Below are positions 1-41,174 of a stretch of DNA of 41,444 nt, in pieces. The stretch lies in IMG/VR virus record IMGVR_UViG_2563366870_000005; one strand, 5' to 3'. Position 1 is the stretch's first letter, and the number at the start of each line of letters is the position of its first letter. Both the position numbers and the translations under genes were made by a program. Origin of the DNA: a virus (taxonomy: Duplodnaviria > Heunggongvirae > Uroviricota > Caudoviricetes). The notes beneath the pieces were generated by a model that searched no databases, was not told the DNA's origin, and saw only the letters and a program-made list of their open reading frames with translations.

Positions 1-555
1 TCATTTATCTCCGACCGGAAACCTCTTATACAAAGTCGATATGCCAACATCATAGATGATCGCCACCTTCTGGCGAGGAACTCCTGATGCAATTAATCGT
101 CCGGCCTGTGCCCATTGTTCTGGTGTAAGTTTGGGACGTCGTCCACCAATTCGTCCCTGTGCGCGAGCAGCTTCCAGGCCAGCTTTTGTTCGTTCAACAA
201 TCAGTTCTCGTTCCATTTCAGCCAGGGCACCCATCACATGAAAGAAAAAACGCCCCATCGGTGTGCTGGTATCAATAGCATCCGTCAGGCTGCGAAAATT
301 AACGCCACGTTCGCGCAACTCCTCAACCAGAATGACCAGATGCCGCATACTACGCCCCAGCCGATCCAGCTTCCAGACCACCAGCGTATCACCTGCCGAT
401 AATGTCCTGAGCAGTTTTTTCAGTCCAGGCCTTTCGGACTTTGTACCGCTTATCTTGTCTTCAAAAATCAGCTCGCATCCTGCACAGTTCAGCGCATTAC
501 GTTGTAGATCTGTGTTCTGGTCATTTGTTGACACACGTACATAGCCAATAAGCAT
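1..555 (-). CDS. pin: DNA invertase (Hin/Gin/Pin-family serine recombinase)
   Basis: Translation from ATG 553-555 begins MLIGYVRVSTNDQNTDLQ, the conserved N-terminus and catalytic-Ser region of Gin/Hin/Pin invertases, with a C-terminal HTH; SD GGGGGAG ~6 nt upstream; stop TGA at 1-3. Track ORF 1..591 is an in-frame upstream extension. Confidence 0.9.
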   Translation of the reverse strand: MLIGYVRVSTNDQNTDLQRNALNCAGCELIFEDKISGTKSERPGLKKLLRTLSAGDTLVVWKLDRLGRSMRHLVILVEELRERGVNFRSLTDAIDTSTPMGRFFFHVMGALAEMERELIVERTKAGLEAARAQGRIGGRRPKLTPEQWAQAGRLIASGVPRQKVAIIYDVGISTLYKRFPVGDK

Positions 556-609
556 GGTAGCTCCCCCTGACAAAAGCAGGAATGATGCCATTTGCTCGTT
601 ATTTCTGCA

Positions 610-635
610 TTTTCATAAACGTTGGTTTGGGAGAA
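610..635. other. Inversion crossover site, left (hix/gix-like, 12-2-12 architecture)
   Basis: Inner half-site 624-635 and core TT 622-623 are identical (as reverse complement) to the right site; outer half-site 610-621 is an imperfect copy (about 8/12). Lies ~55 nt upstream of the invertase start. Confidence 0.65.
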
Positions 636-2519
636 GCGGCAAAACGAAATGTGGGTACAGTGGTATAGCAGACCCCGGATATGCCAGCATTTGCAATTGA
701 TTCGTGGTCCTTTAGGCTATTATGTAAGTTTATTGGTGAGAAATTCACTTCTACAGAATACCCTGTGCTCGTGAACGTGGTTCCCTCGCTTGCACTACCT
801 GCCGATCAGCCGGTTTTTATAGGCATCGGGGAGGACGGTCCCGTGATTGCAGACCGACCGAATCTTGCTCCGGGGGAATCGTCTGCAATTTTTGAACATG
901 TACGTAATATGGCATTGCGTGCGGGAGCCGGTCTTGCCGCAGGGAGATCCAGAGACAGTTTAAATCCAGGAGGACGGTCAAAAGATGATGTCTATGGTCT
1001 AGGCCGAACAGAATGACTCTGTCCTAAGGTAGCTTCATCTCTCTGAGCACGTATCTCTCGTATGGCCCAACGATGTGGTCGAAATAGTGGACATTGATGT
1101 CGCCGAATTTATGAAGGAAGTACCGCAAGGAAATTACAGATGTGTCATCAACAGTGAAACCGGTTTTAGTTAAAAACGGCCGGCCTATAACGAGGGACAA
1201 TTTGCCTTAGCCTTACTAGAAAAGCGGCAATTATTAAATTAGCGCCTGGTATAATGAATATGTAAACACTGGCGTAGTAATGCGGCCATGTGCCGCCTGT
1301 AAGGTGCCGAGCTGACACATTCCGGGAAGTGGCGCGATATTCTCGGGTCAGTGATGGAGGCCGAAACTTGAGGTTCGCCAGATAACGATTGGCCCAAGCG
1401 AAAGGGACTCCAGGCTAGAAGAGGATCATAGCTGTGCTATTATAGGTTGTCATCTCCGCGTTTAAACATTCCCGCACAACGTTAAATCGGATGGTGTCTA
1501 GTGGGTTCCGGATACCGAGGCACAGTATAGCCCGTTGGAACAGGCGGCAGGAAGCCAGTGCAGGACGATGCATGATCTGGCGCTGTCTTCCAGCCGTCTG
1601 TATTGCCTCAATATACTGGGCGTCCGTAACCTGCCGCAACTTGACAACACCCGATTTAACGCTTTGCGGTAATAGATAAAGCGTGAGACAACCATAGTTG
1701 CCGGCACAGATCTGATCCTCAGTAACAGTGGAGCCATTGAGAGGTAAGCCAACGATCTCCTTGCGAAGCGCTTCTTTAGAGCTGCACCACTGACTCCTAA
1801 TTACACACCCACATCCCATAATGCTCCAGCTCCTGTCAATTCCAGCGGCAAAGGGGGGCTTACTTAGGCCAGTGTTTATTTTTTCATTAGTCGAGCACGT
1901 GTATAAACACGTGACGCTTTTACAATTAGGCTGACGCAAATTGCCCCTCGCGGTAGGGAGCTCGATTACATATAAATGAAGTCTCTCTATCGAGCCCTCC
2001 CCAGAATGTTAATTCCGATACTTCCTTGATAAGTTTGTCTACCTCAATGTCGTCTATTTTGATTATATCGCCGGGCCATACGCCAGATAAGTGCTAAGCG
2101 ATATGAAGCTCCATAGAGAACAAGGTCTTTCTTTTTAACTAGTAAATAGATATCTTCTTTAGCCCGTCTTATCGAGTTTTATCCTTATCTGGAATTTTGT
2201 GCGACAACACTGTTTCCCGTACACCATGCTAAATTACTGGCATGTTCAAAAATTGTGGATAATACCTCCGGAAGTGGATTACGCGGGACTTCAAGAACGC
2301 CATCATACATCACAATAAGTATGAACTCCGCCCGATCGTGAAATAATATAGGGGCCTGTAAACCTATAGACCGCGTAGGGTAACCAGAGACAGTGACATA
2401 CTGACCAATGTACCCCAATAACAGCATAAACGATCCAGTGTCAGATGCGGTAGTTGGCATTGCGGCTAACGGCCTGACCAACGTTCCCACATTTCGTTTT
2501 GCCGCTTCTCCCAAACCAA
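622..2519. other. Invertible DNA segment (~1.9 kb) bounded by 34-bp perfect inverted repeats
   Basis: 622-655 is the exact reverse complement of 2486-2519; identity starts at the putative core dinucleotide and extends inward, as in Gin/Hin/Pin systems; adjacent to invertase gene and tail-fibre gene. Confidence 0.65.
656..1016 (+). pseudogene. Silent alternative tail-fibre C-terminal cassette (opposite orientation), apparently disrupted
   Basis: Plus-strand frame entering from the left crossover site (codons from 624) is the frame the fibre would use after inversion; it hits TAG at 666-668, then ORF 681..1016 in the same frame encodes a sequence recognisably similar to the current fibre C-terminus (DxxSF, LLxxFIGxxxTxxxYP, IFEH). 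Confidence 0.35.
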
Positions 2520-2856
2520 GGTTTTCGAGAGCCGTTTTCACCGTGCCATCCGATTTGATATCGCCAAACGGATTCTTGCGGCTCAGATATTCAACAGCAA
2601 ACCCCGATCCCAGCAATTCAACAAAACCGGGCAGATCACCATTATCAAGCACATCCCGTTGCGTTTTATCACTTACAAACTGGGCCAGAGCTGCAGCAAT
2701 AAAGCTGGCCTGCCGAATAACCTTATTGACTTGCGCACTGGATGCTTTCCCTGCTGTAAATCCGGATAAAAGCGCAGGCAACGCTTCCCATTCCTCCTGC
2801 GACATAACATTGGCATTTTTACCCGTTGCGAATGCTTTAAAGTCATTTTTTGCCAT
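2185..2856 (-). CDS. Tail fibre protein; constant N-terminal part outside and variable C-terminal ~110 aa inside the invertible segment
   Basis: ORF crosses the right crossover site; ATG at 2854-2856 overlaps the upstream stop (TGATG); position immediately after baseplate wedge genes and next to the invertible segment. Confidence 0.55.
   Translation of the reverse strand: MAKNDFKAFATGKNANVMSQEEWEALPALLSGFTAGKASSAQVNKVIRQASFIAAALAQFVSDKTQRDVLDNGDLPGFVELLGSGFAVEYLSRKNPFGDIKSDGTVKTALENLGLGEAAKRNVGTLVRPLAAMPTTASDTGSFMLLLGYIGQYVTVSGYPTRSIGLQAPILFHDRAEFILIVMYDGVLEVPRNPLPEVLSTIFEHASNLAWCTGNSVVAQNSR
2506..2531. other. Inversion crossover site, right (hix/gix-like)
   Basis: TTCTCCCAAACC-AA-GGTTTTCGAGAG: two 12-nt half-sites in inverted orientation (about 9/12 match) around a 2-nt core; resembles hix/gix sites; lies inside the tail-fibre coding sequence. 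Confidence 0.65.
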
Positions 2857-3536
2857 CAGAGTAATACTCCCCATGCCCCTACATCAAAACCACTGATGAA
2901 TTCGTTATCCATATCAAAACCAAAAAATTTTGAACCTTCCGATGGGGTTTCCACCGAAGGTGTTTCAATGCCACCCGCCCACACCCCGGCGGCTTTTACT
3001 GTGAGATATCCCTGTTTAATTGCAGCAATTAACTCACGCGATACATCTGAAATATCAGTATCAGGAAAGACCCAGACCGATATCGTCATGTCCTGGTTAT
3101 CGACAATCTGCATTCGCAGCCCGGAGCCTGCTGTCGCCGCGTCAAGAATTGCTGGAAGAGAATCATTCCGTCCGTCCCAGTTATTAATCGCAATCTTCGC
3201 TTTAAGAATGACACGATAAGTTTCATCGCTGAGATACATGTATCCTGAATCAGGATCGTATGGTCCCTGCCATACACCCTGATCATATCCAAGCCCGTCG
3301 GTATCCCAGCTGAAATAAACACCTGAGATAGGCTGGCTGACAACACGGCTACGCCCGATCCACAATCCCAGAATGTCAAGTTGCACACCAACGGCAGAGT
3401 CAATATCAAATGCAGTAATCAGCCCTCTGGTGGCCACCGCAACATCAATAAGCGGCCGGGTCATCAGATCAACATGTGCAAGAAATTTAGGTTTGGTGGC
3501 GTGGTAGTTCGTGATTAGTTCGGTGTATTTGCTCAT
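2856..3536 (-). CDS. Baseplate wedge/tail protein (P2 gpI / Mu gp48-like position)
   Basis: 226-aa ORF, ATGA start/stop overlap with the upstream J-like gene; position between J-like protein and tail fibre. Confidence 0.55.
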   Translation of the reverse strand: MSKYTELITNYHATKPKFLAHVDLMTRPLIDVAVATRGLITAFDIDSAVGVQLDILGLWIGRSRVVSQPISGVYFSWDTDGLGYDQGVWQGPYDPDSGYMYLSDETYRVILKAKIAINNWDGRNDSLPAILDAATAGSGLRMQIVDNQDMTISVWVFPDTDISDVSRELIAAIKQGYLTVKAAGVWAGGIETPSVETPSEGSKFFGFDMDNEFISGFDVGAWGVLL

Positions 3537-4732
3537 GACTCCACCGTTATAACGATATTTTCTGGGGTACAGGACGCAGATTCGTTGTATCTGATATCAA
3601 TGTTTGATGACGACAAAGCCCCCGGGGATTTCCCAATCGTCAGTTCCTGAATATCGTAATAGCGTGCATTCCCGCCACTCACCACGCCAAGATTCGCCGG
3701 TGAGTAAATGCGACTTAAAAGGACCGAATCACCAATCATCAGACTATTGATATAGTCGGAAATAGCCTGCTGGATCTGCTGCCCTATCTGTGATGTATAA
3801 CCCGTAAAAACTTTTAATTTAATCCGGGCATAAACAGGCACATCACTGGAACGCGAGAATTTGATTACATGGGGATTGCCGTATTTATCCGGAACCGTAA
3901 CAGATGTTGTACCGTGAGTGGCTGTCCCCTGGCCTTTATTCCCTCTGATAGCCTGAGCAATATCCGTCACATCACCGCCATCCACAATTACAGCAACAGA
4001 GTGTGGCGGTAACCCGTTACCGTCCTCCGAACCAGTATCGTTTTCATAGAGTTTGTGGCGGGTTACACCGGCAACATTAGAAACAGCGCCATCCAATGTT
4101 TCAAATGGGGTTATTGATGGCAACGCAACACTTTGCGACTGGCGAATACGTAACTCAGCGTCAGTTTCTGCTGGAGTGCCCACAGTAGCCGCAGCAGGAT
4201 TGGTTACCGAAACCCAGCCACGGGTTGGCGTATTAATTTCAGTGATAGTTCCAGCCAGCGCCGCCACTGCACCACTGACGGAACATGTTGCAGTCACCAT
4301 CACTGTACCATCCACGCCGACCACCACTGAAGCAGGCAAACGCCATATCACATTATTACTGTCTTTCACACTGCCATTAATGATGGTTGTTCCGGCAGTT
4401 CCTGTAAGAAGCAAATCAACCGTAGAATTCGTCGCGCCTTTACGTGAAATACCATTTATTTTCACGTTACTGGTCAGTGCAGCCCCATAGCCGGTTGCCG
4501 GTGAAAAACAGTTGTAGACAGTTATCGCCATATTATTGGCATCATGAATCGCCAGCGCCATCAGAGCCACCATCTGGCCGTCTTTGCTGTCCGGTTCGAG
4601 GTAGGCATCACTGCCATAAATCTGCTGAAAATAGCTAATCAGGGTGCTGAGTATCGTCTGATAATCAGGCGCACTGATCCCCTCCGCGGTTACCTTTGCA
4701 GATAAACCGAGAGAATCAAGGTTCAGAGCCAT
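3533..4732 (-). CDS. Baseplate J-like protein (P2 gpJ / Mu gp47-like)
   Basis: 399-aa ORF translationally coupled to flanking baseplate genes; size and order W-J-I typical of contractile-tail baseplates. Confidence 0.65.
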   Translation of the reverse strand: MALNLDSLGLSAKVTAEGISAPDYQTILSTLISYFQQIYGSDAYLEPDSKDGQMVALMALAIHDANNMAITVYNCFSPATGYGAALTSNVKINGISRKGATNSTVDLLLTGTAGTTIINGSVKDSNNVIWRLPASVVVGVDGTVMVTATCSVSGAVAALAGTITEINTPTRGWVSVTNPAAATVGTPAETDAELRIRQSQSVALPSITPFETLDGAVSNVAGVTRHKLYENDTGSEDGNGLPPHSVAVIVDGGDVTDIAQAIRGNKGQGTATHGTTSVTVPDKYGNPHVIKFSRSSDVPVYARIKLKVFTGYTSQIGQQIQQAISDYINSLMIGDSVLLSRIYSPANLGVVSGGNARYYDIQELTIGKSPGALSSSNIDIRYNESASCTPENIVITVES

Positions 4733-5085
4733 TACGCCTCCGATGTAACAGTCGTTATTCCATAAAGAGTGTCGATTTCAGCGGAAAACATGACACGTCG
4801 GGTCGTGGTATCCACTGTCGTATTGAAAGAGAGGATTGATTTAACGCCCCGCGTTTCGAGGATGCGCTTACGGATCGCCAGGTTGTAGGTTTCCGGCTTC
4901 TGCTTACCGAGCACGGACTGGATCCACGGAGTCCCTTCGGTGGTGTCGAGAAACCATTGCCCATACCACAATTCGAATCGCGTTTTCACAGCCTGTGCTA
5001 CGGCCTCAGGCGAGTTAATCAGCCAGGTGTCATCACCGCTGCCAAAGGTGTAATCGCCATCGGCGTCTTCACGTCTGTATCGCAT
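4732..5085 (-). CDS. Baseplate protein (P2 gpW / gp25-like)
   Basis: 117-aa ORF between spike and J-like genes; stop/start overlaps on both sides. Confidence 0.6.
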   Translation of the reverse strand: MRYRREDADGDYTFGSGDDTWLINSPEAVAQAVKTRFELWYGQWFLDTTEGTPWIQSVLGKQKPETYNLAIRKRILETRGVKSILSFNTTVDTTTRRVMFSAEIDTLYGITTVTSEA

Positions 5086-5837
5086 CAGTTTACCCCATCG
5101 GTATTGCTTCCACCGCGCTGAACACCGCCATGAGTGTGCGTATCATCGATTGGCTTGCCGTTAGCCTTAACGCTCCCCAAGAACTCAACAGCACCAGTGA
5201 TTTTTGAAGCCACACCAGAAACCACAGACCCCACCATGCCCCCCAACCAGGTTAACAGGCCATGAATGGTTACTTTCTCAGAAAAATCAGCCAGAGGGGC
5301 AACCACATCAAGACCACCCGGAGCGACAATTTTAATTTTCCTGGTATCAGGATTAAGCTCAAAATAGGTGCTGCCGTCGTCACTACGCAACTGTGTGGCA
5401 CTGGTATTAATACCGCTAATCTTCCTCGCCTGCGACTGGGGACCGACAATACAAAACGCATCCGATAAATCATGCATTCTGTCATCGACCGGCTCCTGTA
5501 TCCCACCGCTCTGCCACCAGAAATCAATACAACGATCGGCAAAAACGACAAGACACTCATCCCCGGCTTTAACCGGAAAAGTCAACGTACAGCCTCCACC
5601 GCGCGGAAATACCACTGGCACATCCACCAGCAACGGGTAATTTTTGGTAATGCGGTTACCGTCGTTATCCTTTTCAACCGAACGAATAGCTGGCTGCACA
5701 ACCGCCGTCACCGCGTCGGGCTCGAATGACTGAACAATGCCAGGCAAGGCGACACGGATCTGGTTCTTTGTTGTTTCCCGTTCAGATTTGAATGTTTCGG
5801 CAAGGTCGCCGCTGCGGGTCTGGTCAGATACTGCCAT
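5085..5837 (-). CDS. Baseplate spike/assembly protein (P2 gpV / Mu gp45-like)
   Basis: 250-aa ORF with Gly-rich C-terminal region; first gene of the V-W-J-I block. Confidence 0.6.
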   Translation of the reverse strand: MAVSDQTRSGDLAETFKSERETTKNQIRVALPGIVQSFEPDAVTAVVQPAIRSVEKDNDGNRITKNYPLLVDVPVVFPRGGGCTLTFPVKAGDECLVVFADRCIDFWWQSGGIQEPVDDRMHDLSDAFCIVGPQSQARKISGINTSATQLRSDDGSTYFELNPDTRKIKIVAPGGLDVVAPLADFSEKVTIHGLLTWLGGMVGSVVSGVASKITGAVEFLGSVKANGKPIDDTHTHGGVQRGGSNTDGVN

Positions 5838-5854
5838 TTAGTAGGCTCCAGAAA

Positions 5855-5880
5855 GCAAAAAACCCGCCGGGTGGCGGGTT
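5855..5880 (-). terminator. Rho-independent terminator downstream of the moron pair
   Basis: On the minus strand a 7-bp GC-rich stem (ACCCGCC/GGCGGGT, 4-nt loop) is followed by TTTTTT; sits between the stop of the 79-aa gene (5897) and the spike gene start (5837). Confidence 0.7.
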
Positions 5881-5896
5881 CATTATTGAAGTTTCA

Positions 5897-6136
5897 TTAC
5901 TGCTTGTTTGCTTCTAACGCTTCAGCTATTCGGCGAAGATACTCATTGTTTTTAAATGAAACCATGATGCACTCAAAGAATATTCGGCAAAATACAGCAC
6001 ATAACAAAAGCACTAAAGCGCCAGCAGCCTTCCCATTAACAAACGTTATAATGGCGGCAACAACCAGAAGTAACATTGTGATGCCATACAGAACGTTGAT
6101 GATTTTTGGAGTTATTAATTTATCAAATCCGAACAT
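5897..6136 (-). CDS. Small membrane protein (two predicted TM helices), moron
   Basis: 79-aa ORF with two hydrophobic stretches; ATG 6134-6136 with SD AAGGAA; AT-rich compared with flanking tail genes; own candidate promoter and terminator. Confidence 0.6.
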   Translation of the reverse strand: MFGFDKLITPKIINVLYGITMLLLVVAAIITFVNGKAAGALVLLLCAVFCRIFFECIMVSFKNNEYLRRIAEALEANKQ

Positions 6137-6172
6137 GCGACAAATTCCTTATCGTGAAAGTAGAAGTATCAC

Positions 6173-6200
6173 ATTATAATTACGAGTGATTAATCAACAA
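6173..6200 (-). promoter_or_regulatory. Candidate sigma70 promoter for the small membrane-protein gene
   Basis: Minus strand: -35-like TTGTTG (6195-6200), 16-nt spacer, perfect -10 TATAAT (6173-6178), ~40 nt upstream of the ATG at 6136. Confidence 0.4.
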
Positions 6201-6531
6201 TCTTTTTGCATGGAAAGGAACCGATGATTTTCGGCGCATCCATGCTGTTCTGCAGCAGTTGCACATTCAGGAATCGCGTTTCGGTACCAGGGCGACGAAT
6301 GTATTCAAAGCCGTAGTTGTTACCGTCTTTGGCAGGCATAATCCCCATGTCTACTTTCAAACCATTGGTACCCAGTTCGGTGATTTTTTGAGAGGTAACT
6401 CTTTCACCGTTGATTGTCGATAACTCGCCCTGGTTTGCAACCATAGTGTAGCCACCGCATTTAACCGTGAAGCCATCCGCCCACGCGCTGCACGCAGAAA
6501 AGACAGCTAACAGAAAAATGATACCCCTCAT
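6190..6531 (-). CDS. Secreted protein / possible lipoprotein, moron
   Basis: 113-aa ORF with N-terminal signal peptide (MRGIIFLLAVFSACSAWA) containing a lipobox-like FSAC and an AWA cleavage motif; SD AAGGGG; AT-rich; embedded between baseplate genes. Confidence 0.6.
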   Translation of the reverse strand: MRGIIFLLAVFSACSAWADGFTVKCGGYTMVANQGELSTINGERVTSQKITELGTNGLKVDMGIMPAKDGNNYGFEYIRRPGTETRFLNVQLLQNSMDAPKIIGSFPCKKIVD

Positions 6532-6534
6532 TGC

Positions 6535-7596
6535 TCATCCCCTTTGCAAAGCCGATTGCGTATACAGATCCGCCGCGCCACGCGCTTCGCACATCATATC
6601 CATGTACCACGCCTGGCCCCTTGTGTCGCCAGTGTACATAATCCCGCGCACAATATAAACGCCATCCGTTGCGATGCTGGCAGGCTGTGATGTGGTGCCG
6701 CTGAGCGTAATATTTCCGTCCGTGTTCTGGTCGGTGATCTGCCCACCAGCCATAGCGATATCGTTGTTCGACAACGCGGTGCGATATACAGAAGCCTGAT
6801 CCAGTTGAATGAGCCCGTTAACCCGGATGTTCGGATTAATGAGCGCACGGACGTTTACGCCGTTACCGATAGTCTGCTGCGGCATGCCAATAAGCCCGGT
6901 AGCGCTGTTGAGCACAATCGCTTCATGAACATATTCGTTATTCGCCACCATCTGGCGCTGACCGTCCACGAATTGCCATGTTGCGCCACATTGCCCGGCT
7001 ACGTTATCCATTAGATGCCGCGTCATGCCAAAGAGTACCCGCCCCCGGGGGAATACAGTAGCAGGCATTTCAGGCGTCAGGCCTTCGGTCGCGCCTTTGG
7101 CTTCGAAGTCTTTCATCAGCGCACGGTTCACATCAGCGACCGTGTAACCGGCAGCCAGCGTCTGTGAGGTTATACTGGTGGCAAAAGCCAAATCAGTATC
7201 TGCTGCCTGAATCAGGACGTAGGAATCAACCGGACTGTCTTTTCCTGTAACCGAGTAGCGAATTTCACCGCTGAAAATTAGTCCGTAGTTGCGGCCATCA
7301 CTCTGGCCCACGTCCGCCGCATCAACCTCCCGCACGATCCCGACGTCGCTTGCCGACACCTCCGGCGCGATACCGTCGTAACCCGCAATCAGACGCACTT
7401 TCGAAAACTCCTGCCCGGTGATTCGGTTCACAGTATCTGCCGAGAGGTTATAAATTTTGATAGTCCCTACCCGGGACGCACTGCTGATGTTGAACCAGTC
7501 GATCGTAAAGGTGACTTTAAAATCACTTAGCTCAATTCCCTGACCGTTCCCGTCCACAAGCTGCAGCTCGAAATGTCTCATCCAGTTCTGTGACAT
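6535..7596 (-). CDS. Baseplate hub / tail protein (Mu gp44 / P2 gpD-like position)
   Basis: Large ORF after the tape measure block; preferred start ATG 7594-7596 (MSQNWMRH) with GGAG 5 nt upstream and 2 nt after the upstream stop; track start 7629 is TTG. Confidence 0.5.
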   Translation of the reverse strand: MSQNWMRHFELQLVDGNGQGIELSDFKVTFTIDWFNISSASRVGTIKIYNLSADTVNRITGQEFSKVRLIAGYDGIAPEVSASDVGIVREVDAADVGQSDGRNYGLIFSGEIRYSVTGKDSPVDSYVLIQAADTDLAFATSITSQTLAAGYTVADVNRALMKDFEAKGATEGLTPEMPATVFPRGRVLFGMTRHLMDNVAGQCGATWQFVDGQRQMVANNEYVHEAIVLNSATGLIGMPQQTIGNGVNVRALINPNIRVNGLIQLDQASVYRTALSNNDIAMAGGQITDQNTDGNITLSGTTSQPASIATDGVYIVRGIMYTGDTRGQAWYMDMMCEARGAADLYTQSALQRG

Positions 7597-7598
7597 GC

Positions 7599-7901
7599 TT
7601 ACTCCGTTGATACCAGTAAATGGCTGCAACTGCCCAGGTCAGTTTTCGTGGGATAATCCTGTGTGTTGTCATCGCAGACCACCAACAGCTTAAAACCAAG
7701 CCCCATACAGGCGTACTGCGCCAGCAGATCAGCGCCAGTGACGAGAGGAATACCGGAGATTACCGGCTCCCCTCTGTCATTCTGCAGGTCCATAATCCAG
7801 TACAGATCGCGCCATATGATGCTAATCCGCCAGGTGACACCGCCCAGGACGATGCTGAACTGCTGGTTGTCCGCTGTCAGCGGAATTTCCTGAATTGTCA
7901 T
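7599..7901 (-). CDS. Tail protein (small, baseplate-associated)
   Basis: 100-aa ORF, ATG 7899-7901 overlapping the stop of the upstream gene; within the tail operon. Confidence 0.5.
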   Translation of the reverse strand: MTIQEIPLTADNQQFSIVLGGVTWRISIIWRDLYWIMDLQNDRGEPVISGIPLVTGADLLAQYACMGLGFKLLVVCDDNTQDYPTKTDLGSCSHLLVSTE

Positions 7902-8488
7902 TAGCCGCCTCCCAGTAATGACGCCACGTTACCCGTAATGCTTTTCAGCAGTGAAGTATCTGGAGGCTTTGTGGTTTTGTTGCCGCTATTCTGTACCGCC
8001 GACGTGCTGGCCCCTTCCTTCATGTTGGTTTTATCCGCGACGGTAATCTGCTGTGTCCGGGAGATAAGGACCTCCCTCAGGGTAAGGACGGCGGACAGGA
8101 CATTTTCGGTTGTCTTGTCCGTCGTCACTTCCAGCGCCCGGATCAACATGTTGCTGTACAGCCGTTTACCGGTTACCACATCGAAGGGGATACGGCTTTC
8201 CTGCAAATCCAGTAGCTCCTGATACGTCTGCTGAGGACTCAGGCCGAGCAGGCTGGTAGCCGTCAGGTTACTGGCAAAATCCAGCAATGTGCCGCCACCG
8301 GCGAAACCAACCTCCATCACCACTTCTGACGGTTTTTTATAGGCATGATCAGCGACAGCAGCCCCGACCTCTACCGGATGCTCGGTTATTTCAAGCATAT
8401 CTGTATGCTTCTCTGAAATAACAACACTGGGAACAATCATTCCTATTTTTCTGCTCTGCTGATGAAAAAGTGTAGAGAGAATATCCAC
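7901..8488 (-). CDS. Tail protein following the tape measure
   Basis: 195-aa ORF starting with GTG 8486-8488 overlapping the tape-measure stop; function by position only. Confidence 0.45.
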   Translation of the reverse strand: MDILSTLFHQQSRKIGMIVPSVVISEKHTDMLEITEHPVEVGAAVADHAYKKPSEVVMEVGFAGGGTLLDFASNLTATSLLGLSPQQTYQELLDLQESRIPFDVVTGKRLYSNMLIRALEVTTDKTTENVLSAVLTLREVLISRTQQITVADKTNMKEGASTSAVQNSGNKTTKPPDTSLLKSITGNVASLLGGG

Positions 8489-10476
8489 TAACCCACCCTC
8501 ACCTGATTACTTCGCATGACCTGAGCATTTGCAGACTGTTGCCGACGTGCAACCTCATTACCGACAGCGTGCGGATCTCCGCCACCGTAAATGTGGTAGG
8601 TATTTTGCTGGTTAACCTCTGTCATTTTGCCACTAATTCCCGCCACGGCAGCCTTATTAATCAGCTCTCGAGAATAGATATTTCTTCCATTTTCATGCTG
8701 GATAATGCTGCTCATCAATGCTGACATGGTTTTCGGATCGCTCATATTCAGGGCAGCCCGGGGATCCACTCCCAGTCGTTGCGATACAGCCCTGATATAC
8801 GCAGTTGTGTTGTTATTATCAGAGGCAGGTGCCCAGGTAGAGATAATTTTTTCCACACTGTTTATTCCTCGCCCGGCGTACAACATTAACTGACGAGCAA
8901 GAGCCCGTAATCCATCAAAGGCAGTTTCAAATCTGGCAAATCGCCCGCCCGGGTGTTCAAGAGAAGCCCCCGCCTGACCAGCAAAATTAAGGTTTCCCGG
9001 ATTGTTATTCCGTTCTCCTCGTTTCGTAGCCTGTGCATGTTGTTCCGGCTCATCATCACCAAACCAGCCGCGTACCGTCCGGCCCACACTGCGGGGATCG
9101 AATCCCCAGTGCTCTTTAATCCAGTCGGCAGTACTGTTAGCGCTGTCTGTAACCATCGGCATCGCTGACGGATTTTCGCTGCCCTGATTAAGTATCTGTT
9201 TGCCGATGCTGACGGCATCAGCCCAGCGTCCATCTTTGATAGCGTTGAGCAGGTCGGCGATCATGTTCAGCATTTTGCTGAATTCGCCCATCTGGTCGAT
9301 GAAGTTGCTGAAATCCCACTTCAGGGACCATGATTTGGGGTCAATATTGAGTAGTTTCGCCAGCGCTTTCGCCAGATCGTTAACGGTCGTTTTAAGGTCA
9401 CGAACCATCTTCAGCGCGGCATCGACCTCCGGTTTCCACTTGCCCCAGTCAATCAGGCTGTCGCCGCCTTCCTTCCAGGTCTGATAGTCCTCCCACAGGA
9501 GGGCAATCCCCGCCGCCAGCGCGGTAATGAGGCCAACCGGCGACATCCAGAACGTACTGTTCAGAATGCGCAGCGCAATCGTCAGTGCGCCAAACAGCGA
9601 GATCAACTCCCGCGTTTGCTTATCCAGCGATTGCCACCAGGTGATAAGGCCTGATGTCCCCTCAATCAGTCTGAAGAACAGCCGCCCGATAATATCCCCG
9701 AGCGCCAGAATGCCTTTTATGGCTTTCGTCAGAGTCTGCTCGATACGAGGGAAGTTGTCCAGGATATGGCGGCGCAGGGTGTCCAGCGAACCTGCAAGCC
9801 CACCCGCAAGATTAGAGCCGATTTTGTCACGGGCCATGCCTGCCATCGCGCTAAACTCACGCAAGGAGGTCATAAATTTGTTGGAGCTTCTGGCCGCCTC
9901 GTCAGCATTGAAGCCGATAGCTTTCGCCATTGCGCTGTACTGCCCGGAGAAGCCACCCACACCCCGGCGCATCGCCATAAGGGTATTTTCGTCAATGCCC
10001 AGCATCTGCGCATACTGGTTAGCCCGGTAATACGGCATGCTGCTGAGTTTCTGTCCAACGCCCGTAAAGATAGCGGCCATGTCACGCATGTTACCGCTGG
10101 CATCACGGGTCTGTACGCCCAGGCGATTCAGAAATCCCTCCGCCCCGGGATTATTACGAATAAACCGGGAGAGGTTTTCCAGAGAAGATCGCGCAGCGTC
10201 CACGCTGCCGCCAACCTGCGAAACCGCATAGCCAATAGACTGAATTCCCTGGACTGTCGCGCCGGTGCGCTGTGACGCCCAGTAAAGATTATCCAGACCA
10301 GAGGCGATCTTAGCCGTGAAGGCCACCACGGACAGCGCAGCTCCTTCGACGGCCAGCCCCATTTTGATGACATTTGCAGTTGTACCGGCGAGGACAGAAC
10401 CGAATTTTTTCGCTCCTGCATCATCCACACTGAAGCCAAGCGAGACGAGGAAATCTTTAATAGTCTCGGCGTTCAT
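8488..10476 (-). CDS. Tail tape measure protein
   Basis: Largest tail ORF, follows the tube-chaperone-frameshift arrangement; preferred start ATG 10474-10476 (MNAETIKDFL) with strong SD GGAGAGAGG; track start 10497 is TTG. Confidence 0.8.
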   Translation of the reverse strand: MNAETIKDFLVSLGFSVDDAGAKKFGSVLAGTTANVIKMGLAVEGAALSVVAFTAKIASGLDNLYWASQRTGATVQGIQSIGYAVSQVGGSVDAARSSLENLSRFIRNNPGAEGFLNRLGVQTRDASGNMRDMAAIFTGVGQKLSSMPYYRANQYAQMLGIDENTLMAMRRGVGGFSGQYSAMAKAIGFNADEAARSSNKFMTSLREFSAMAGMARDKIGSNLAGGLAGSLDTLRRHILDNFPRIEQTLTKAIKGILALGDIIGRLFFRLIEGTSGLITWWQSLDKQTRELISLFGALTIALRILNSTFWMSPVGLITALAAGIALLWEDYQTWKEGGDSLIDWGKWKPEVDAALKMVRDLKTTVNDLAKALAKLLNIDPKSWSLKWDFSNFIDQMGEFSKMLNMIADLLNAIKDGRWADAVSIGKQILNQGSENPSAMPMVTDSANSTADWIKEHWGFDPRSVGRTVRGWFGDDEPEQHAQATKRGERNNNPGNLNFAGQAGASLEHPGGRFARFETAFDGLRALARQLMLYAGRGINSVEKIISTWAPASDNNNTTAYIRAVSQRLGVDPRAALNMSDPKTMSALMSSIIQHENGRNIYSRELINKAAVAGISGKMTEVNQQNTYHIYGGGDPHAVGNEVARRQQSANAQVMRSNQVRVG

Positions 10477-11106
10477 TATCCTCTCTCCATTTCTCAATGC
10501 GCCGCTGGTTATCCGCTTTTACCGCCAGATGGTCATTCAAGAGAGCAATGTCGTACAAATCGACAGAGCCATCTTTAAGTGCTGTATAAGGAATTAACCC
10601 GGCGTCAACCGGATTGAGAAGGTAGGACAGCCCGTCCGGCAGGCTGTTAAACGTCAGCCCTGTTGCAGGCTCTGCGTCGTGCTGGTAAGGGGTGTAGGCA
10701 AAAAATTTCCCAGCGAATCGGCGACCACCCGCGCCACCAGCTGCAGCATGACCAGCAGGTCAATATCATCAAACATCAGTTCGCCCTGGGTAAATACCGG
10801 CACCCATCCGTCCATATGACGCCGCGATACCACCGCAAGACAGGGATGAATAATCGCATCGGTGTCATCTTCGGTCAGGGAAGACAGTTCCTCAGCGATA
10901 CGCGGGAGCATGGTTTCAAACACCGGTTTTAACTGCTCTAATTTCACGGTGTCGATTTTGCCATCAGCAGGCAAACGGGAGCGAATGCTCCCGAAATCTG
11001 ACATCATTCCTGCCAGCACCGGCAGAAGTTTGCGGGTCACTTTCAGCTGATCAAAAACGCTGAGTTTTGCCGCGCGATATTTCACGCCTTTAATTTCGAA
11101 TTCCAT
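10457..11106 (-). CDS. Tail assembly chaperone, -1 frameshift-extended product (GT / E+E'-like)
   Basis: After slippage at T TTT TTG (10699-10705) the -1 frame stays open for 80 codons, contains no ATG or GTG, and stops at TAA 10457-10459 just inside the tape-measure start. Confidence 0.55.
10654..11106 (-). CDS. Tail assembly chaperone (lambda G / P2 gpE-like)
   Basis: 150-aa ORF between tail tube and tape measure; contains a slippery heptamer near its 3' end, followed by a long -1 open frame. Confidence 0.7.
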   Translation of the reverse strand: MEFEIKGVKYRAAKLSVFDQLKVTRKLLPVLAGMMSDFGSIRSRLPADGKIDTVKLEQLKPVFETMLPRIAEELSSLTEDDTDAIIHPCLAVVSRRHMDGWVPVFTQGELMFDDIDLLVMLQLVARVVADSLGNFLPTPLTSTTQSLQQG

Positions 11107-11109
11107 GTA

Positions 11110-11550
11110 TTAAAACTCCCCGAGAACCTGGTCAATCTTGCCACAGTCAAACACCCACGGCATCGTATTACCGGTTTTAGCGTTGGCGTTATCCGGTTGT
11201 TTCTGGAACGCAACACTGCGTGCCGTGATGATGTCGCCGCTGACCTTGTTGCGGATCACGATAACGTTATTCCCCCATGTGGCAGAAGACTGGCTCTGTG
11301 CGTTATACGCCAGCGACAATTTTTTATTTGTCGGTGATGTCTTCAGAAGGTTAACGGTAATCGTCCCGCTTTTATCTGCATGGAGACTGTGCATCACTTC
11401 GCCATCAGCACCGATGGTCATGGTGTTTTTAGGACCGCCCATCGCAACCACAATCCCCTCTTCAGAACTTGCCGAACCGTACCCGAGGTCAATCGAACCT
11501 GTCGGCCCGGTCAGCGTCGCAGTGACATCCATAAAAGAATAGGTAGACAT
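11110..11550 (-). CDS. Tail tube protein
   Basis: 146-aa ORF immediately downstream of the sheath gene and upstream of the chaperone, the canonical myovirus order. Confidence 0.65.
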   Translation of the reverse strand: MSTYSFMDVTATLTGPTGSIDLGYGSASSEEGIVVAMGGPKNTMTIGADGEVMHSLHADKSGTITVNLLKTSPTNKKLSLAYNAQSQSSATWGNNVIVIRNKVSGDIITARSVAFQKQPDNANAKTGNTMPWVFDCGKIDQVLGEF

Positions 11551-11560
11551 TCACTTCCCC

Positions 11561-12706
11561 TTAGCGAACAACGTTAATCTGTACGTCAGCGTAATGAACC
11601 GCGCCTGCAAGTTTTATTGCAGCCTGAATCACCGGAGCCTTACGGGCTTCACGTTCTGATTGTGCCTGTTCATCCAGCGGCTGGGCGTATACGTAATAAC
11701 CTTTGGGCAGCGTGTCACCTGATGACAACTGGCCAAGGTCGCCCCCGTTCCATACGCCCGGAGCAATCAGTCCATTCTGAACGGCCTGATCCAGTGATTT
11801 TTCAACATTTGATAACAGTCGGGTAATACCGGCTTCAGTCTGGGGAACTTTCGTGGTGCTGGTATAAAGCAGGTTATAGAGGTTGGTCTGCACATAATTC
11901 TGTAACCAGTCCAGGCCGTGGCGTTCATCAAAGAAATCGCCGTTAGCCATCACTCCCTGCTGGAGGATAGCTGTATCATTCTGGTAGTACACGAACACAT
12001 TGCAGTTTTTTGCATCAAGTGCCGATGCCTGGCTGACTGTCAGTGTTTCATACCCGACACCCGGCTCCTGCTTAAACTTGAGCGTAATCGCGGTATTACT
12101 GCCATTGAAATTAACCGTGAATGCCCGGCCAAATGCAGATAACGCAGCGTATTTATTACCCGATGAATACTGAATAAAACTGCGTGAATATCCGGCGGTT
12201 TTCAGTTTTGATGCCAAATCATCGCTGGATGCAGTCTGCAGGCATTTCTCATCGCTTGTCGTAATCGCCAGAATACGGCTTACAGAAGAGGATTCGATCG
12301 CCGCAGCCACTTTCAGCCAGTCTGCATCCGGAATATCTTCATCGTCTGCAATCCCCAGCCCATACCATGAAGTATAATCGAGCATGGCATTCACAGCCTG
12401 CTCCAGCGTCTCAGGCGTGGCCTGTTCGCTGTCTCCCTTCGTTTTCACCCAACGACCAACAAAAACCTCCTGAGGTTTCGGTGATTGTGAGAAAAACACC
12501 TGCGCAGCCTTATATTCTGGTGATTCCACGCCAAAATCTTTTCCAATATCTTCCGCGGCAGAATAACGGCGAATGCGCTCACTTACCGGAATGATTGTGG
12601 ACGGGCCGAGAATGAGTAATGCACCAAAATTTCGCCCTGATGCTGCACGCGGCGACATGATCACATCAACATTAACAACGTTTGATACAGGCAAGCCCTG
12701 TGCCAT
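11561..12706 (-). CDS. Tail sheath protein
   Basis: 381-aa ORF preceding tube/chaperone/tape measure; size and position typical for a contractile sheath. Confidence 0.65.
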
Positions 12707-26903: not shown

Positions 26904-27116
26904 TTAAGCCTTTTTATCGTTTTGTGAGCCATACAACAGCCAATTAGGGTCGCAATCCAATGCTATAGACATTTCAAGAAGATAACGTGGCCGAGCAATA
27001 ACACCACTTTCAATTCTGTTTATTGCCTGCTGGCTCACTCCTGTGAGCTCAGCCAACGTAACTTGCGTCATTTTGAGTTCTTTACGTCGTTCTTTTACTC
27101 GGGTCGCTAAGGTCAT
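26904..27116 (-). CDS. Cro-like HTH transcriptional regulator (XRE family)
   Basis: HTH motif (MTQVTLAELTGVSQQAINRIESG); preferred start ATG 27114-27116 with SD GAGGTGA; divergent from the CI-like gene and heads the minus-strand operon. Confidence 0.75.
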   Translation of the reverse strand: MTLATRVKERRKELKMTQVTLAELTGVSQQAINRIESGVIARPRYLLEMSIALDCDPNWLLYGSQNDKKA

Positions 27117-27174
27117 TGCTTTCACCTCATACAATTTTAGTGGTATTTAGCAACAACAAACGAGGTTTGTCAAA

Positions 27175-27211: not shown

Positions 27212-27236
27212 AATACAACCCAGAAGGACTAATCCC

Positions 27237-27860
27237 ATGTCTCTCGCAGCCCGTTTTAAAGCACGTCGTTTGGAATTAGGAATGACTCAAGTGGAAGTAG
27301 CGAATTCTGCAGGGGTTAGCCAACAATCCATAGAATCCATCGAAAGTGGACGAACCAGAAAGCCACGCAATCTTCTGGATCTGGCTAAGGCCTTGAAATG
27401 TAGCCCAGATTGGCTACTGAACGGTAAAAATATTATGCCTCTCGCGGAGATAAGTACCAGACGCATACCTATATTAAGTTACGTTCAGGCAGGAGAGCTT
27501 ACAGAAGCAAGAGACATAACAGATCTGACAGGGGAATTTGAATATATTTTGGCAGACTCTGACATTCCAGAAACATGCTTCGCATTACGTATTGATGGCG
27601 ACAGCATGCAACCAGAGTTTAAAGAAGGAGACATTGTTATCATCGATCCTGATCTATGTCCTGCACCAGGGGAGTTTGTTGTCGCCAAAAACGACGGTCA
27701 CGAAGCTACATTTAAAAAATACCGTCCATTAGGAATCGGCATCGACGACTTTGAATTAATCCCCCTAAATCCTGATTACCCTATTTTTCGTAGTGCAGAT
27801 ATGAACTTACAGATCATAGGTGTAATGATCGAACACCGTATTTACCGCCGTAAACGTTAG
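27237..27860 (+). CDS. CI-like repressor (N-terminal HTH, C-terminal S24/LexA-like peptidase domain)
   Basis: HTH (LGMTQVEVANSAGVSQQSIESIESG) plus C-terminal S24-like region (RIDGDSMQPEFKEGDIVIIDP ... KKY); ATG 27237 with SD AGAAGGA; track start 27186 is TTG. Confidence 0.8.
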   Translation: MSLAARFKARRLELGMTQVEVANSAGVSQQSIESIESGRTRKPRNLLDLAKALKCSPDWLLNGKNIMPLAEISTRRIPILSYVQAGELTEARDITDLTGEFEYILADSDIPETCFALRIDGDSMQPEFKEGDIVIIDPDLCPAPGEFVVAKNDGHEATFKKYRPLGIGIDDFELIPLNPDYPIFRSADMNLQIIGVMIEHRIYRRKR

Positions 27861-39378: not shown

Positions 39379-39575
39379 GCGAGAAACCCGACGATTTACT
39401 CACCCCAGATGAAGTATGCCAAAAGTTAGGTATTACACAGAAAACGCTATGTGAGTGGAATATTAAGCATCGTCATCGGGCTATCCTGGCACCAATTCGT
39501 TTCAGTGCAAAAGTAGTTCGTTATGAGCGCCGAAATGTCGACGCTTTTATTCAAAAGTGTCGCAGCCAGTATTAA
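39375..39575 (+). CDS. AlpA/excisionase-family HTH protein (putative Xis)
   Basis: 66-aa ORF (LLTPDEVCQKLGITQKTLCEW) typical of AlpA/Xis-like regulators; adjacent to and convergent with the integrase; SD AGAGG. Confidence 0.7.
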   Translation: MSEKPDDLLTPDEVCQKLGITQKTLCEWNIKHRHRAILAPIRFSAKVVRYERRNVDAFIQKCRSQY

Positions 39576-40969: not shown

Positions 40970-41174
40970 TCTCAATCCTTATCTGCGTAGGCGCAGAAAA
41001 CAAGCTCACACATACAAGTCTTTTCTACGGGACAAAATGCAATGTGTTGCGGTTTTGTGTTGCTGGACTGAGTTTATCAAGGTTAAATATACTGGATCAA
41101 CATACAGTAAGTTAATGACAGTAAAGCATACAAACTCGATACAACTTACTGATTTTAAAATGATTTAACGGTAA

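Follow-up and report, generated by a model that had tools for sequence, protein, structure and literature searches.

The window (the whole stretch of 41,444 bp that was analysed) carries a full-length myovirus-type prophage, with baseplate J, DUF2612, sheath and tube genes, a repressor and an integrase, and this prophage is the host element of a serine-invertase locus with a crossover site within a tail-fibre gene. The earlier note on this DNA was right in assigning the system to the Gin/Hin/Pin family. Of 5,426 complete E. coli genomes, 3,366 have matches to DNA of the locus, a count that is due in part to the widespread invertase gene. The flanks are 95–99.4% identical to E. coli prophages and show a natural mutation pattern, and the remainder of the window resembles an ordinary, intact prophage. 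A scan for promoters and terminators over positions 1–3600 stayed at shuffle level and was uninformative.

The pinE-like invertase gene (positions 1–555, minus strand) adjoins the repeat described below and, in agreement with the earlier note, is complete, encoding 184 aa; its open reading frame as called mechanically extends to 591, and the homologues begin at the methionine of position 555. The product is a small serine recombinase in which the catalytic domain is N-terminal (Pfam Resolvase, 8.9e-52, residues 3–135) and is followed by a C-terminal helix-turn-helix (HTH_7, 6.3e-12, residues 138–179). It is closer to the invertases than to the resolvases: among PDB structures it matches Mu Gin best (3UJ3/4M6F, E ~1e-93, full length), with 314 bits over residues 1–181, against 111 bits for gamma-delta resolvase. 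Identity to Mu Gin extends to 141 of the 184 residues (77%), including the conserved YVRVSTNDQ catalytic-serine motif, and the N-terminal LIGYVRVSTNDQNTDLQRNAL is the same in both proteins. The gene is collinear with the annotated pinE of natural E. coli prophage relatives (L001 and L003), and its mismatches fall mostly in third codon positions (3/1/23 for positions 1/2/3), which is the natural pattern.

The references given in PMC3798978 are the source for a recombinational enhancer, established for Gin and Hin, inside the invertase gene. In the window, the sequence GTGCAGGATGCGAGC at 471–485 (minus strand) fits the pattern GNNYRNNWNNYRNNC, and it occupies position 71–85 of the invertase gene (window 485–471), the same gene position at which Mu gin has the matching motif GTGCAGGATGTGAAC. 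This candidate Fis-binding motif, located inside the 5′ end of the gene, may possibly be part of an enhancer. The enhancers of the family act in cis and have two Fis-binding sites; the strict pattern revealed no second one here.

On the other side of the segment, the tail-fibre open reading frame (2185–2874, minus strand, 229 aa) spans the right crossover site, whose location inside this frame had also been read correctly before. Its constant N-terminal part (Sc; 2520–2874, minus strand), taken from the list of open reading frames, is collinear with the fibre genes of L001, L003 and L007; in the relatives the annotated start is Met 2856 (MAKNDFKAF…), and the open reading frame has an upstream methionine at 2874. 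Immediately upstream lies a DUF2612 baseplate-wedge gene (2856–3536, minus strand; Pfam DUF2612, 4e-47), the stop of which overlaps the fibre start codon annotated in the relatives. Positions 2520–4415 are 96.9% identical to L003 with natural substitutions (43 transitions and 16 transversions), and the mismatches of the DUF2612 gene to L003 are distributed 0/1/18 over the three codon positions. The right site falls within …ENLGLGEAAKRNVG…, in the reading frame of the fibre gene; in L003, fibre tips are encoded in the same frame at both ends of the segment.

Two inverted 26-bp crossover sites bound the segment, each formed by imperfect 12-bp half-sites around matching 2-bp cores (TT/AA). The left site (610–635, plus strand) is composed of the outer half-site TTTTCATAAACG, the core TT at 622–623 and the inner half-site GGTTTGGGAGAA, while the right site (2506–2531, minus strand) reads CTCTCGAAAACC TT GGTTTGGGAGAA from outside to inside, with its core (AA) at 2518–2519. 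The half-sites agree in dyad symmetry at 8/12 positions on the left and 9/12 on the right, and comparison of the two 26-bp sites with Mu gix gave 17/26 and 18/26 identical positions, respectively. The site centre, a 19-nt sequence (AAACSTTGGTTTGGGAGAA), has exactly two copies in the window, in inverted orientation, when 0.01 would be expected.

From the cores inward, the left arm (622–655) is the exact reverse complement of the right arm (2486–2519), in 34 of 34 positions. This pair, absent from the automatic repeat listing and revealed by direct comparison of the sequences, is the sole perfect inverted repeat of at least 16 bp between separate sites in the window, and according to our own calculation the chance expectation of a perfect inverted repeat of 34 bp is ~1e-11. 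The right arm is part of the reading frame of the fibre, where it codes for …LGLGEAAKRNVG. The earlier description of 34-bp perfect inverted repeats that begin at a 2-nt core between 12-nt half-sites is therefore exact. With no more than two sites in the window, the idea of a multi-site shufflon was discarded.

What can be read in the window itself is the invertase, both sites and the constant part of the fibre. By analogy with the Hin and Gin literature, from which the chemistry of strand exchange and the dependence on Fis and the enhancer are borrowed, the serine invertase would recombine the two inverted 26-bp sites at their 2-bp cores. Given that the right site is inside the fibre gene, inversion would place one or the other of two C-terminal tips behind the constant N-terminal part of the fibre (2520–2856), and each tip would be trailed by its own assembly chaperone. 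Tail-fibre inversion segments that swap a C-terminal tip together with its chaperone have been described (PMC4134206).

The cargo of two tips and two chaperones, as well as the existence of both orientations, is seen only in the natural relatives. L003 carries a Gp53-like_C fibre tip, a second tip with a weak Collar match and two Caudo_TAP chaperones (1e-27 and 3e-33). The same chaperone (WP_000613358.1) is found in the e14 elements L005 and L006, but the side of the segment on which it lies and its strand with respect to pinE are reversed between the two. Among L001–L006, the types of arm and the cargo genes swap ends, with L001, L002 and L006 in one arrangement and L003 and L005 in the other. 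The proposal that inversion exchanges the C-terminal domain of the fibre holds for the natural relatives, where the tip and its assembly chaperone are swapped together, but in this window the domains themselves are unreadable.

The reason is found in the interior of the segment (656–2485), which is a per-base, approximately 50:50 blend of both orientations of a natural Sv′-U′-U-Sv cargo. Searches for near-identity with the interior gave no match, and distant searches gave uniform matches of ~64%. Compared with L003 in the forward orientation, the interior aligns collinearly from end to end with only one gap, of 6 bp, and 62.3% identity, and identity at this level (~62%) is limited to the stretch between 656 and 2485; compared with the flipped segment, identity is ~64%. 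The substitutions relative to L003 have a flat matrix, with a transition to transversion ratio of 223:467 (0.48), and are equally frequent in codon positions 1, 2 and 3. A first hint of a global mirror symmetry came from an imperfect 69-nt pair (1461–1529/1612–1680) whose coordinates sum to 3141, which puts it on the diagonal of the 34-bp arms, and in fact the interior is complementary to itself in exact register at 0.607 of its positions (~61%), against a background of at most 0.31 in L001 and L003.

A further test asks of each interior base whether it equals the forward or the flipped base of L003, which is true for 99.3% of them, compared with 71.7% under a null of random substitution. The same test gives 98.9% with L004 and with L008, and 70% with L007, the cargo of which is unrelated. 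Forward and flipped picks number 670 and 677, so that the two orientations are superimposed in the window at ~1:1; the mean run length is 1.96, neighbouring picks are the same or different in 477 and 491 cases, respectively, and the picks are independent of the mirrored pick and free of base bias. The choice of orientation at each differing base thus behaves as an independent fair coin, and this independence from base, neighbour and mirror argues against a deterministic tie-break or a majority taken from a read pile-up. Two edges of the interior (656–683 and 2416–2485) that appeared to be unblended and ‘L001-like’ were rejected as such, being the product of BLAST extension through sequence of low identity; the blend reaches the arms. 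The collections contain no exact parent, and the best cargo relative is the one that explains 99.3% of the bases. The closest flank relative (MLI108K3, 99.4% identical) was rejected as parent on account of its unrelated cargo and truncated invertase.

It follows that the interior is an artefact that cannot be used as real DNA or as genes: what is recorded there corresponds to no DNA molecule and contains the code for neither a working fibre tip nor a working chaperone, and the segment is not the intact, readable switch that the earlier note had taken it for. The chaperone genes are destroyed (the collinear chaperone frame has 10 stops) and the ‘C-terminus’ of the fibre is chimeric, made up of two tips; inside the segment the fibre frame belongs to the blend and is therefore not a real gene. 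The open reading frames 681–1016 (plus strand) and 1415–1939 (minus strand) and the fibre part 2185–2485 are meaningless, and a Pfam search of the blended frames, including the fibre ‘C-terminus’, found no match. The open fibre frame was considered as a sign of selection or of non-random blending and this was rejected, as a long open frame is expected when two in-frame tips are blended (P = 0.35). Two tips with cognate chaperones in mirror arrangement are missing from the window as recorded because the record is blended, and not owing to the biology of the locus. A diversity-generating retroelement was also dropped, since there are no long direct repeats in 1–6000 and blending alone accounts for the whole interior. 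That the quasi-palindromic interior as recorded could be a real DNA molecule is improbable in the extreme.

The length of the repeat deserves separate consideration. The 26-bp site is the functional unit, and in natural relatives only ~15 bp, counted inward from the core, are repeated. Among 54 natural site pairs, drawn from E. coli genomes and IMG/VR contigs, the perfect repeat that runs inward measures 7–20 bp, with a mode of 15, and mirror symmetry is 0.21–0.29; the window, with 34 bp and 0.607, lies outside both ranges, and its 34 bp are an outlier. Positions 16–34 of both arms are the ‘type-1’ fibre sequence (…EAAKRNVG), which natural relatives have at one end of the segment only, the type-2 sequence of the same positions being GGTGCTCCAGCTATTGGCGT. 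Each junction taken separately is natural, given that both 561–655 on the left and 2486–2580 on the right occur in natural E. coli genomes at 100% identity, and L007, the closest relative in the flanks, carries the exact 34-mer at the right-hand end only.

The hybrid junction needed for a true 34-bp repeat (…EAAKR[N/D]VG followed by PFFWP…) is absent from the 5,426 E. coli genomes and, when searched as a codon-degenerate pattern, from 2.9 million viral contigs and 185,579 species-representative genomes; as a positive control, the ordinary junction was found in 101 viral contigs. The extended arm is present in none of the ~900 or more natural junctions examined. The sites are genuine, but the 34-bp perfect repeat on which the earlier note mainly relied is the part of them that looks least natural. 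That note had also named inverted repeats that are assembly artefacts as one finding that would undo its proposal, and this applies in part, since the sites stand while the additional 19 bp of identity have no support in any natural sequence found and the interior is an artefact. The lengthening of the arms from ~15 to 34 bp is either part of the same manipulation as the blend or a rare natural variant, so far unseen, that arose by gene conversion.

Among the closest known systems is the Pin/P segment of the cryptic prophage e14 of E. coli, together with the homologues annotated as pinE in many E. coli prophages. The invertase is annotated as pinE in all close relatives, both window junctions (flank plus 34-mer arm) occur at 100% identity in e14 elements beside mcrA-pinE, and the order of the parts agrees (invertase, tip′, chaperone′, chaperone, tip and constant fibre part), with 26-bp sites of the same type and a TT core. 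However, e14 is a remnant, whereas the switch of the window is in a full-length myovirus-type prophage, and the cargo of the window is blended and its arms measure 34 bp instead of ~15 bp. The Gin/G segment of Mu shares the 141 of 184 invertase residues and the best structural match, the 17–18 of 26 site positions (including AAAC(C/G)-NN-GGTTT), a constant part (Sc) to which one variable part or another is fused, along with the chaperones U and U′, and also a perfect repeat of 34 bp. The latter comprises in Mu the whole 26-bp gix plus 8 bp inside, whereas in the window the repeat begins only with the core, and the outer half-sites are not alike; moreover, the core is TC in Mu and TT here, and the G segment has ~3 kb and a fibre of 504 aa, compared with ~1.9 kb and a fibre of ~231 aa here.

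Segments of the same class have been described in the same host, in the prophages Phi1, Phi2 and Phi4 of EC958, with 26-bp sites and ~50% of the long reads in each orientation (PMC4134206). The sites of Phi2 (…ATAAACGTT GGTTTGGGGGAA and …ATTACCTT GGTTTAGGAGAA; PMC4134206) closely resemble those of the window. In EC958, mixed orientations gave rise to spurious contigs and clustered consensus discrepancies (PMC4134206), and by analogy a mixed population of this kind could underlie a blend, but the assemblers yielded two clean alternative contigs without any per-base mixture and the cargo is 2.1–3.1 kb (PMC4134206). The Hin/hix system of Salmonella is the mechanistic model of the family, with a small serine invertase whose gene contains an enhancer bound by Fis, and with two 26-bp sites that have a 2-bp core (PMC3798978). 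Unlike the window, Hin flips a promoter and not the ends of genes, and the window has only a candidate enhancer motif.

Taken together, these observations indicate that the locus is very probably a standard host-range switch of the Pin/Gin type, which serves the tail fibre of a myovirus-like prophage of E. coli, and that the cargo of the switch (656–2485) is a computational blend of orientations. The opposite notion, that the record is faithful to an intact functional switch with real 34-bp repeats and interior frames that are real alternative fibre ends, can appeal to the repeat, the sites, the invertase and the open 229-aa fibre frame, all of them present, and to a second in-frame open reading frame (681–1016) that is similar to a fibre tip. 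It is nonetheless very improbable, for the interior has neither chaperone genes nor Pfam domains, 99.3% of its bases derive from one natural segment read forward or flipped with the statistics of a coin toss, its exact-register mirror identity of 0.61 is unmatched in 54 natural loci, and open frames of this kind arise when two in-frame tips are blended. Even less probable, and contradicted already by the mirror symmetry and by the test of forward or flipped bases, is that the cargo decayed by random mutation in a defective prophage. Such a history would suit the ~37% divergence from the relatives and the broken reading frames, but random substitution explains 71.7% of the bases and not 99.3%, predicts no mirror symmetry where 0.61 is observed, and would be expected to leave many indels and an excess of transitions in place of one 6-bp gap and a ratio of 0.48; besides, the flanks a few bases away are 95–99% conserved and have a normal mutation pattern.

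The origin of the blend has two explanations of roughly equal likelihood, mixed-template ambiguity and in-silico editing. Positions 16–34 are pure type 1 in both arms, which would have a chance of ~2^-26 had those positions been blended; this implies that the parent had a true 34-bp repeat or else that the arms were handled separately, given that a simple consensus of mixed templates should also have blended them. The first explanation supposes a source culture with the two orientations at ~1:1, consensus calls that were two-way ambiguous and then resolved at random, and a real 34-bp repeat formed by gene conversion between the fibre-tip genes. It is a serious possibility that falls somewhat short of an even chance. 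The reads split at ~50% per orientation and the consensus discrepancies are documented for E. coli prophages (PMC4134206), independent and unbiased picks are what the random resolution of two-base ambiguity codes would give, and the length of the flanking repeat varies widely among prophages (36–508 bp, imperfect, PMC4134206; 34 bp in Mu). Nevertheless, the hybrid junction that it requires is absent from the E. coli, viral and species-representative collections, 54 of 54 natural site pairs are in the range of 7–20 bp, and no public record with blended or ambiguity-coded sequence was found in the collections searched. In particular, the exact blended sequence, queried as a 48-mer, is absent from the viral, genome and metagenome collections, and a degenerate pattern that admits either orientation matched only clean natural segments of other prophages (L008–L010). 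The stronger claim, that the blend is the footprint of a population actively switching at ~1:1 whose parent had a 34-bp repeat by gene conversion, seems rather unlikely.

The second explanation is that the sequence was edited in silico, with one arm copied to give the perfect 34-bp repeat and the interior generated by random per-base crossover with its own reverse complement, and we regard it as close to an even bet. It accounts for a blend bounded exactly by the 34-bp arms, which show no blending and are identical in a stretch where natural arms differ, and for the perfect register without indels and the exact coin statistics, which would not easily come from read pile-ups, as adjacent columns draw on the same reads; the presence of the blended sequence in none of the collections searched is also in its favour. 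Against it, nothing points positively to editing, each junction exists at full identity in natural genomes, and the rest of the window is like that of an intact prophage. If editing is indeed the origin, the window would be uninformative about the mix of orientations in any sample.

Tail-fibre switches of the Pin/Gin type have been known since the 1980s, and the biology of this locus is already known, with nothing new added by the window. Its practical value is as a warning about data quality: an invertible segment may be recorded as a base-wise mix of its two orientations, and the blended record still displays perfect repeats, an intact invertase and long open reading frames, the latter because blending two in-frame genes rarely creates stops. 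From such a record, a reader or an annotation pipeline would infer a functional switch and predict chimeric ‘fibre’ proteins that do not exist. The signature of a blend is cheap to obtain, namely an exact-register mirror identity of ~0.6, an identity of ~62% to a relative both ways without indels, a transition to transversion ratio of ~0.5 and the absence of codon-position bias, and this test of mirror identity and blending can be applied to any candidate inversion locus.

The locus is bounded by two stretches, 622–655 and 2486–2519, which on direct comparison are reverse complements of each other at 34 of 34 bases; no other perfect inverted repeat of at least 16 bp between two separate sites exists in the 41,444-bp window. 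As claimed in the earlier note, this repeat starts at a 2-nt core (TT at 622–623, AA at 2518–2519) flanked by 12-nt half-sites, which gives a left 26-bp site at 610–635 (TTTTCATAAACG TT GGTTTGGGAGAA) and a right site at 2506–2531 (reading inward, CTCTCGAAAACC TT GGTTTGGGAGAA). The alignment proposed there as a check, with the gix site of phage Mu (TTATCCAAAACC TC GGTTTACAGGAA), gives 17/26 and 18/26 identical positions, with the centre AAAC(C/G)-NN-GGTTT common to both. The 19-nt site centre has exactly two copies in the window, in inverted orientation (0.01 expected by chance). An automated repeat search of 1–6000 missed the 34-bp pair, though it listed shorter and weaker ones; it also returned a 69-nt, 74% pair (1461–1529 / 1612–1680) on the diagonal of the arms.

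The small ORF at 1–555 (minus strand) is a complete serine recombinase gene, as had been described (Pfam Resolvase, 8.9e-52; HTH_7, 6e-12). The closest solved structure to its product is Mu Gin, matched over the full length (E ~1e-93), with 141 of 184 residues and the whole catalytic N-terminus identical, and a single candidate Fis-like motif lies at a position conserved with Mu gin. By analogy with Hin and Gin (PMC3798978 and references therein), invertase dimers bound to both sites would be joined with the Fis-bound enhancer, the DNA would be cut at the 2-bp core and, after subunit rotation and religation, the segment would be inverted. The fibre ORF (2185–2874, minus) does span the right site in frame. 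What the window itself shows is the invertase, a pair of 26-bp sites in the correct orientation whose cores match, and the constant part of the fibre; the cargo of two tips and two chaperones, and the existence of both orientations, are shown only in relatives.

In annotated relatives the segment has a mirror layout: fibre tip, tail-fibre assembly chaperone, second chaperone and second tip. That of L003 (E. coli O55:H7 DEC5B) carries a Gp53-like_C tip, a second tip with a weak Collar match and two Caudo_TAP proteins. In each relative one of the arms is type 1 (…GAAGCGGCAAAA…GTGGG, encoding …GEAAKRNVG) while the other differs, being either type 2 (…GAAGGTGCTCCAGC…) or type 3, and the arm adjoining the invertase varies from genome to genome. 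Both orientations of the segment are found in nature: one chaperone accession is shared by two e14 elements, L005 and L006, but its side of the segment and its strand are reversed between them. For switches of exactly this class, the genome paper of strain EC958 describes 26-bp crossover sites and PacBio reads divided about evenly, ~50% for either orientation (PMC4134206).

The interior (656–2485) has no high-identity match in E. coli genomes or phage records, and sensitive searches return single, near-gapless matches of ~1.7 kb at a uniform ~64%. Global alignment of 1–4415 to L003 is collinear, with one 6-bp gap, and identity is ~95–97% outside the segment and ~62% between the arms. The interior substitution matrix is flat (every off-diagonal cell holds 49–66 counts; transitions to transversions, 223:467) and its mismatches are spread equally over the three codon positions (e.g., 80/71/72). 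In the flanks they fall nearly all at the third position (0/1/18 and 3/1/23), with a predominance of transitions (43:16) in the right one. The interior aligns to the flipped L003 segment equally well, at 64%, and is 61% self-reverse-complementary in the exact register of the arms, paired coordinates summing to 3141; mirror identity is only background (≤0.31) in L003 and the relative L001, and 0.21–0.29 in 54 natural site pairs of the switch family.

A position-wise 50:50 blend of a sequence and its reverse complement predicts ~62–65% identity to each and ~63% mirror identity, and all three predictions fit the observed values. Of the interior bases, 99.3% are those of L003 read either forward or flipped, against 71.7% under random substitution at the same rate. 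Alternative parents L004 and L008 explain 98.9%; with L007 (NZ_CP117006.1, strain MLI108K3), whose cargo is unrelated, the figure falls to 70%. The picks are even (670 forward-only, 677 flipped-only; mean run length 1.96), adjacent picks are the same or different in 477 and 491 cases, mirrored positions are independent, and there is no base preference. Given the mirror symmetry, the forward-or-flipped fit and these coin statistics, the interior is not a natural sequence but a per-base fair-coin blend of both orientations of an L003-type cargo.

The genes across the segment have to be read accordingly. The 229-aa "fibre" is genuine only as far as the crossover site, and past it is a chimera of two tips. 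Its frame remains open because both orientations encode a same-frame tip at each end, which is also the reason that 681–1016 resembles a second tip; of 5,000 blends simulated, 35% ran at least as far before their first stop. The chaperone genes are absent from the window (10 stops in the collinear frame), and the ORFs inside the segment are without a Pfam match. Of the switch with an exchangeable fibre C-terminus that the earlier note had described, the invertase, the sites and the constant fibre part stand, but the recorded tip is chimeric and the chaperones are lacking.

The arms present a separate question. Among the 54 natural site pairs, perfect inward repeats measure 7–20 bp (mode 15), and 16–24 of the first 34 arm positions match, versus 34 in the window. 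Both window junctions exist in nature at 100% identity, each in different genomes: one corresponds to the orientation in which the type-1 arm adjoins the fibre gene, the other to that in which it adjoins the invertase. For the 34-bp repeat to be genuine, a tip gene would have to be hybrid, with a type-1 start and a type-2 body (…EAAKRNVG-PFFWP…); searches of 5,426 E. coli genomes, 2.9 million viral contigs and 185,579 species-representative genomes gave no such junction, and the ordinary type-2 junction is present in 101 viral contigs. The arms are unblended, and pure type 1 at both ends would have a chance of ~2^-26 had blending reached them, so either the parent was a gene-conversion variant, rare and so far unseen, or the arms were handled separately in the step that made the blend.

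As to the origin of the blend, the tosses are independent, unbiased, in perfect register and indel-free, and hence point to a product of computation. A read pile-up is an unlikely source, since neighbouring columns share reads and long single-source runs would be expected. Two-way ambiguous calls from real mixed data, resolved at random, and a deliberate per-base crossover edited in silico are about equally likely. The blended sequence was not found in viral, genome or metagenome collections, and a pattern accepting either orientation's base matched only clean natural segments there. If edited in silico, the blend is uninformative on any population; if it goes back to real mixed data, it reflects a ~1:1 mix of orientations, consistent with the EC958 reads (PMC4134206).

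A scan of the whole window for in-register mirror symmetry gave one further centre, 27176.5, with gapless 200-bp arms (26927–27126 / 27227–27426; 58%) and a ~100-bp spacer. This symmetry is natural: its source is a pair of intact paralogous HTH genes transcribed divergently, in which a cro-like ORF (minus) mirrors the N-terminus of a CI-like S24-peptidase repressor starting at 27238. The two form a repressor/antirepressor pair in the immunity region and look as if a single HTH domain had been duplicated. Genuine mirror similarity has intact ORFs on both sides; the blended segment does not.

The window is essentially one single prophage, and the DNA on either side of the switch is of an ordinary E. 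coli prophage kind: 1–655 plus 2520–3600 match 3,366 of 5,426 complete E. coli genomes (best 96–98%), and 2520–12000 is 99.4% identical to strain MLI108K3. Genes for a DUF2612 baseplate wedge, baseplate J/gp47, spike, sheath and tube neighbour the switch, and the far end holds a CI-like repressor, replication genes and the integrase (39572–40975, minus). Positions 1–3 are exactly the invertase stop codon, and the window looks like a predicted prophage trimmed at gene boundaries; DNA past the invertase, such as mom-like or host genes, would lie outside it. The early region also encodes a 500-aa SIR2_2-domain protein (31501–33003), between a DUF2800/PD-(D/E)XK nuclease gene and a family-A DNA polymerase gene, with an 18-bp perfect palindrome (AACTATTTTAAAATAGTT, 32617–32634) inside the ORF; this gene may serve in defence carried by the prophage.

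The parent itself is a mosaic. The cargo is ~99.3% L003-like, the flanks are 99.4% identical to MLI108K3-type prophages and only 95–97% to L003, and the type-1 tip is e14/L007-like, not L003-like, over its first ~85 nt; these different nearest relatives imply that the fibre cassette was exchanged between prophage backbones. In L007, the closest flank relative (99.4%), the invertase is truncated and pseudogenised (locus 1697–1963) and the segment is apparently intact, with a type-3 arm and a tfaE-like chaperone. To invert, this segment would depend on an invertase supplied in trans, as already proposed for EC958 Phi4 (PMC4134206).

Taken together, the locus is the same in its working as e14 Pin/P, Mu Gin/G and the EC958 prophage switches, and belongs to that family on every testable feature of its genuine parts; the cargo and natural-arm features are missing only because of how the segment was recorded. 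The biology of the switch is already known and very common; what deserves notice is the artefact, together with the simple signature by which it can be diagnosed.
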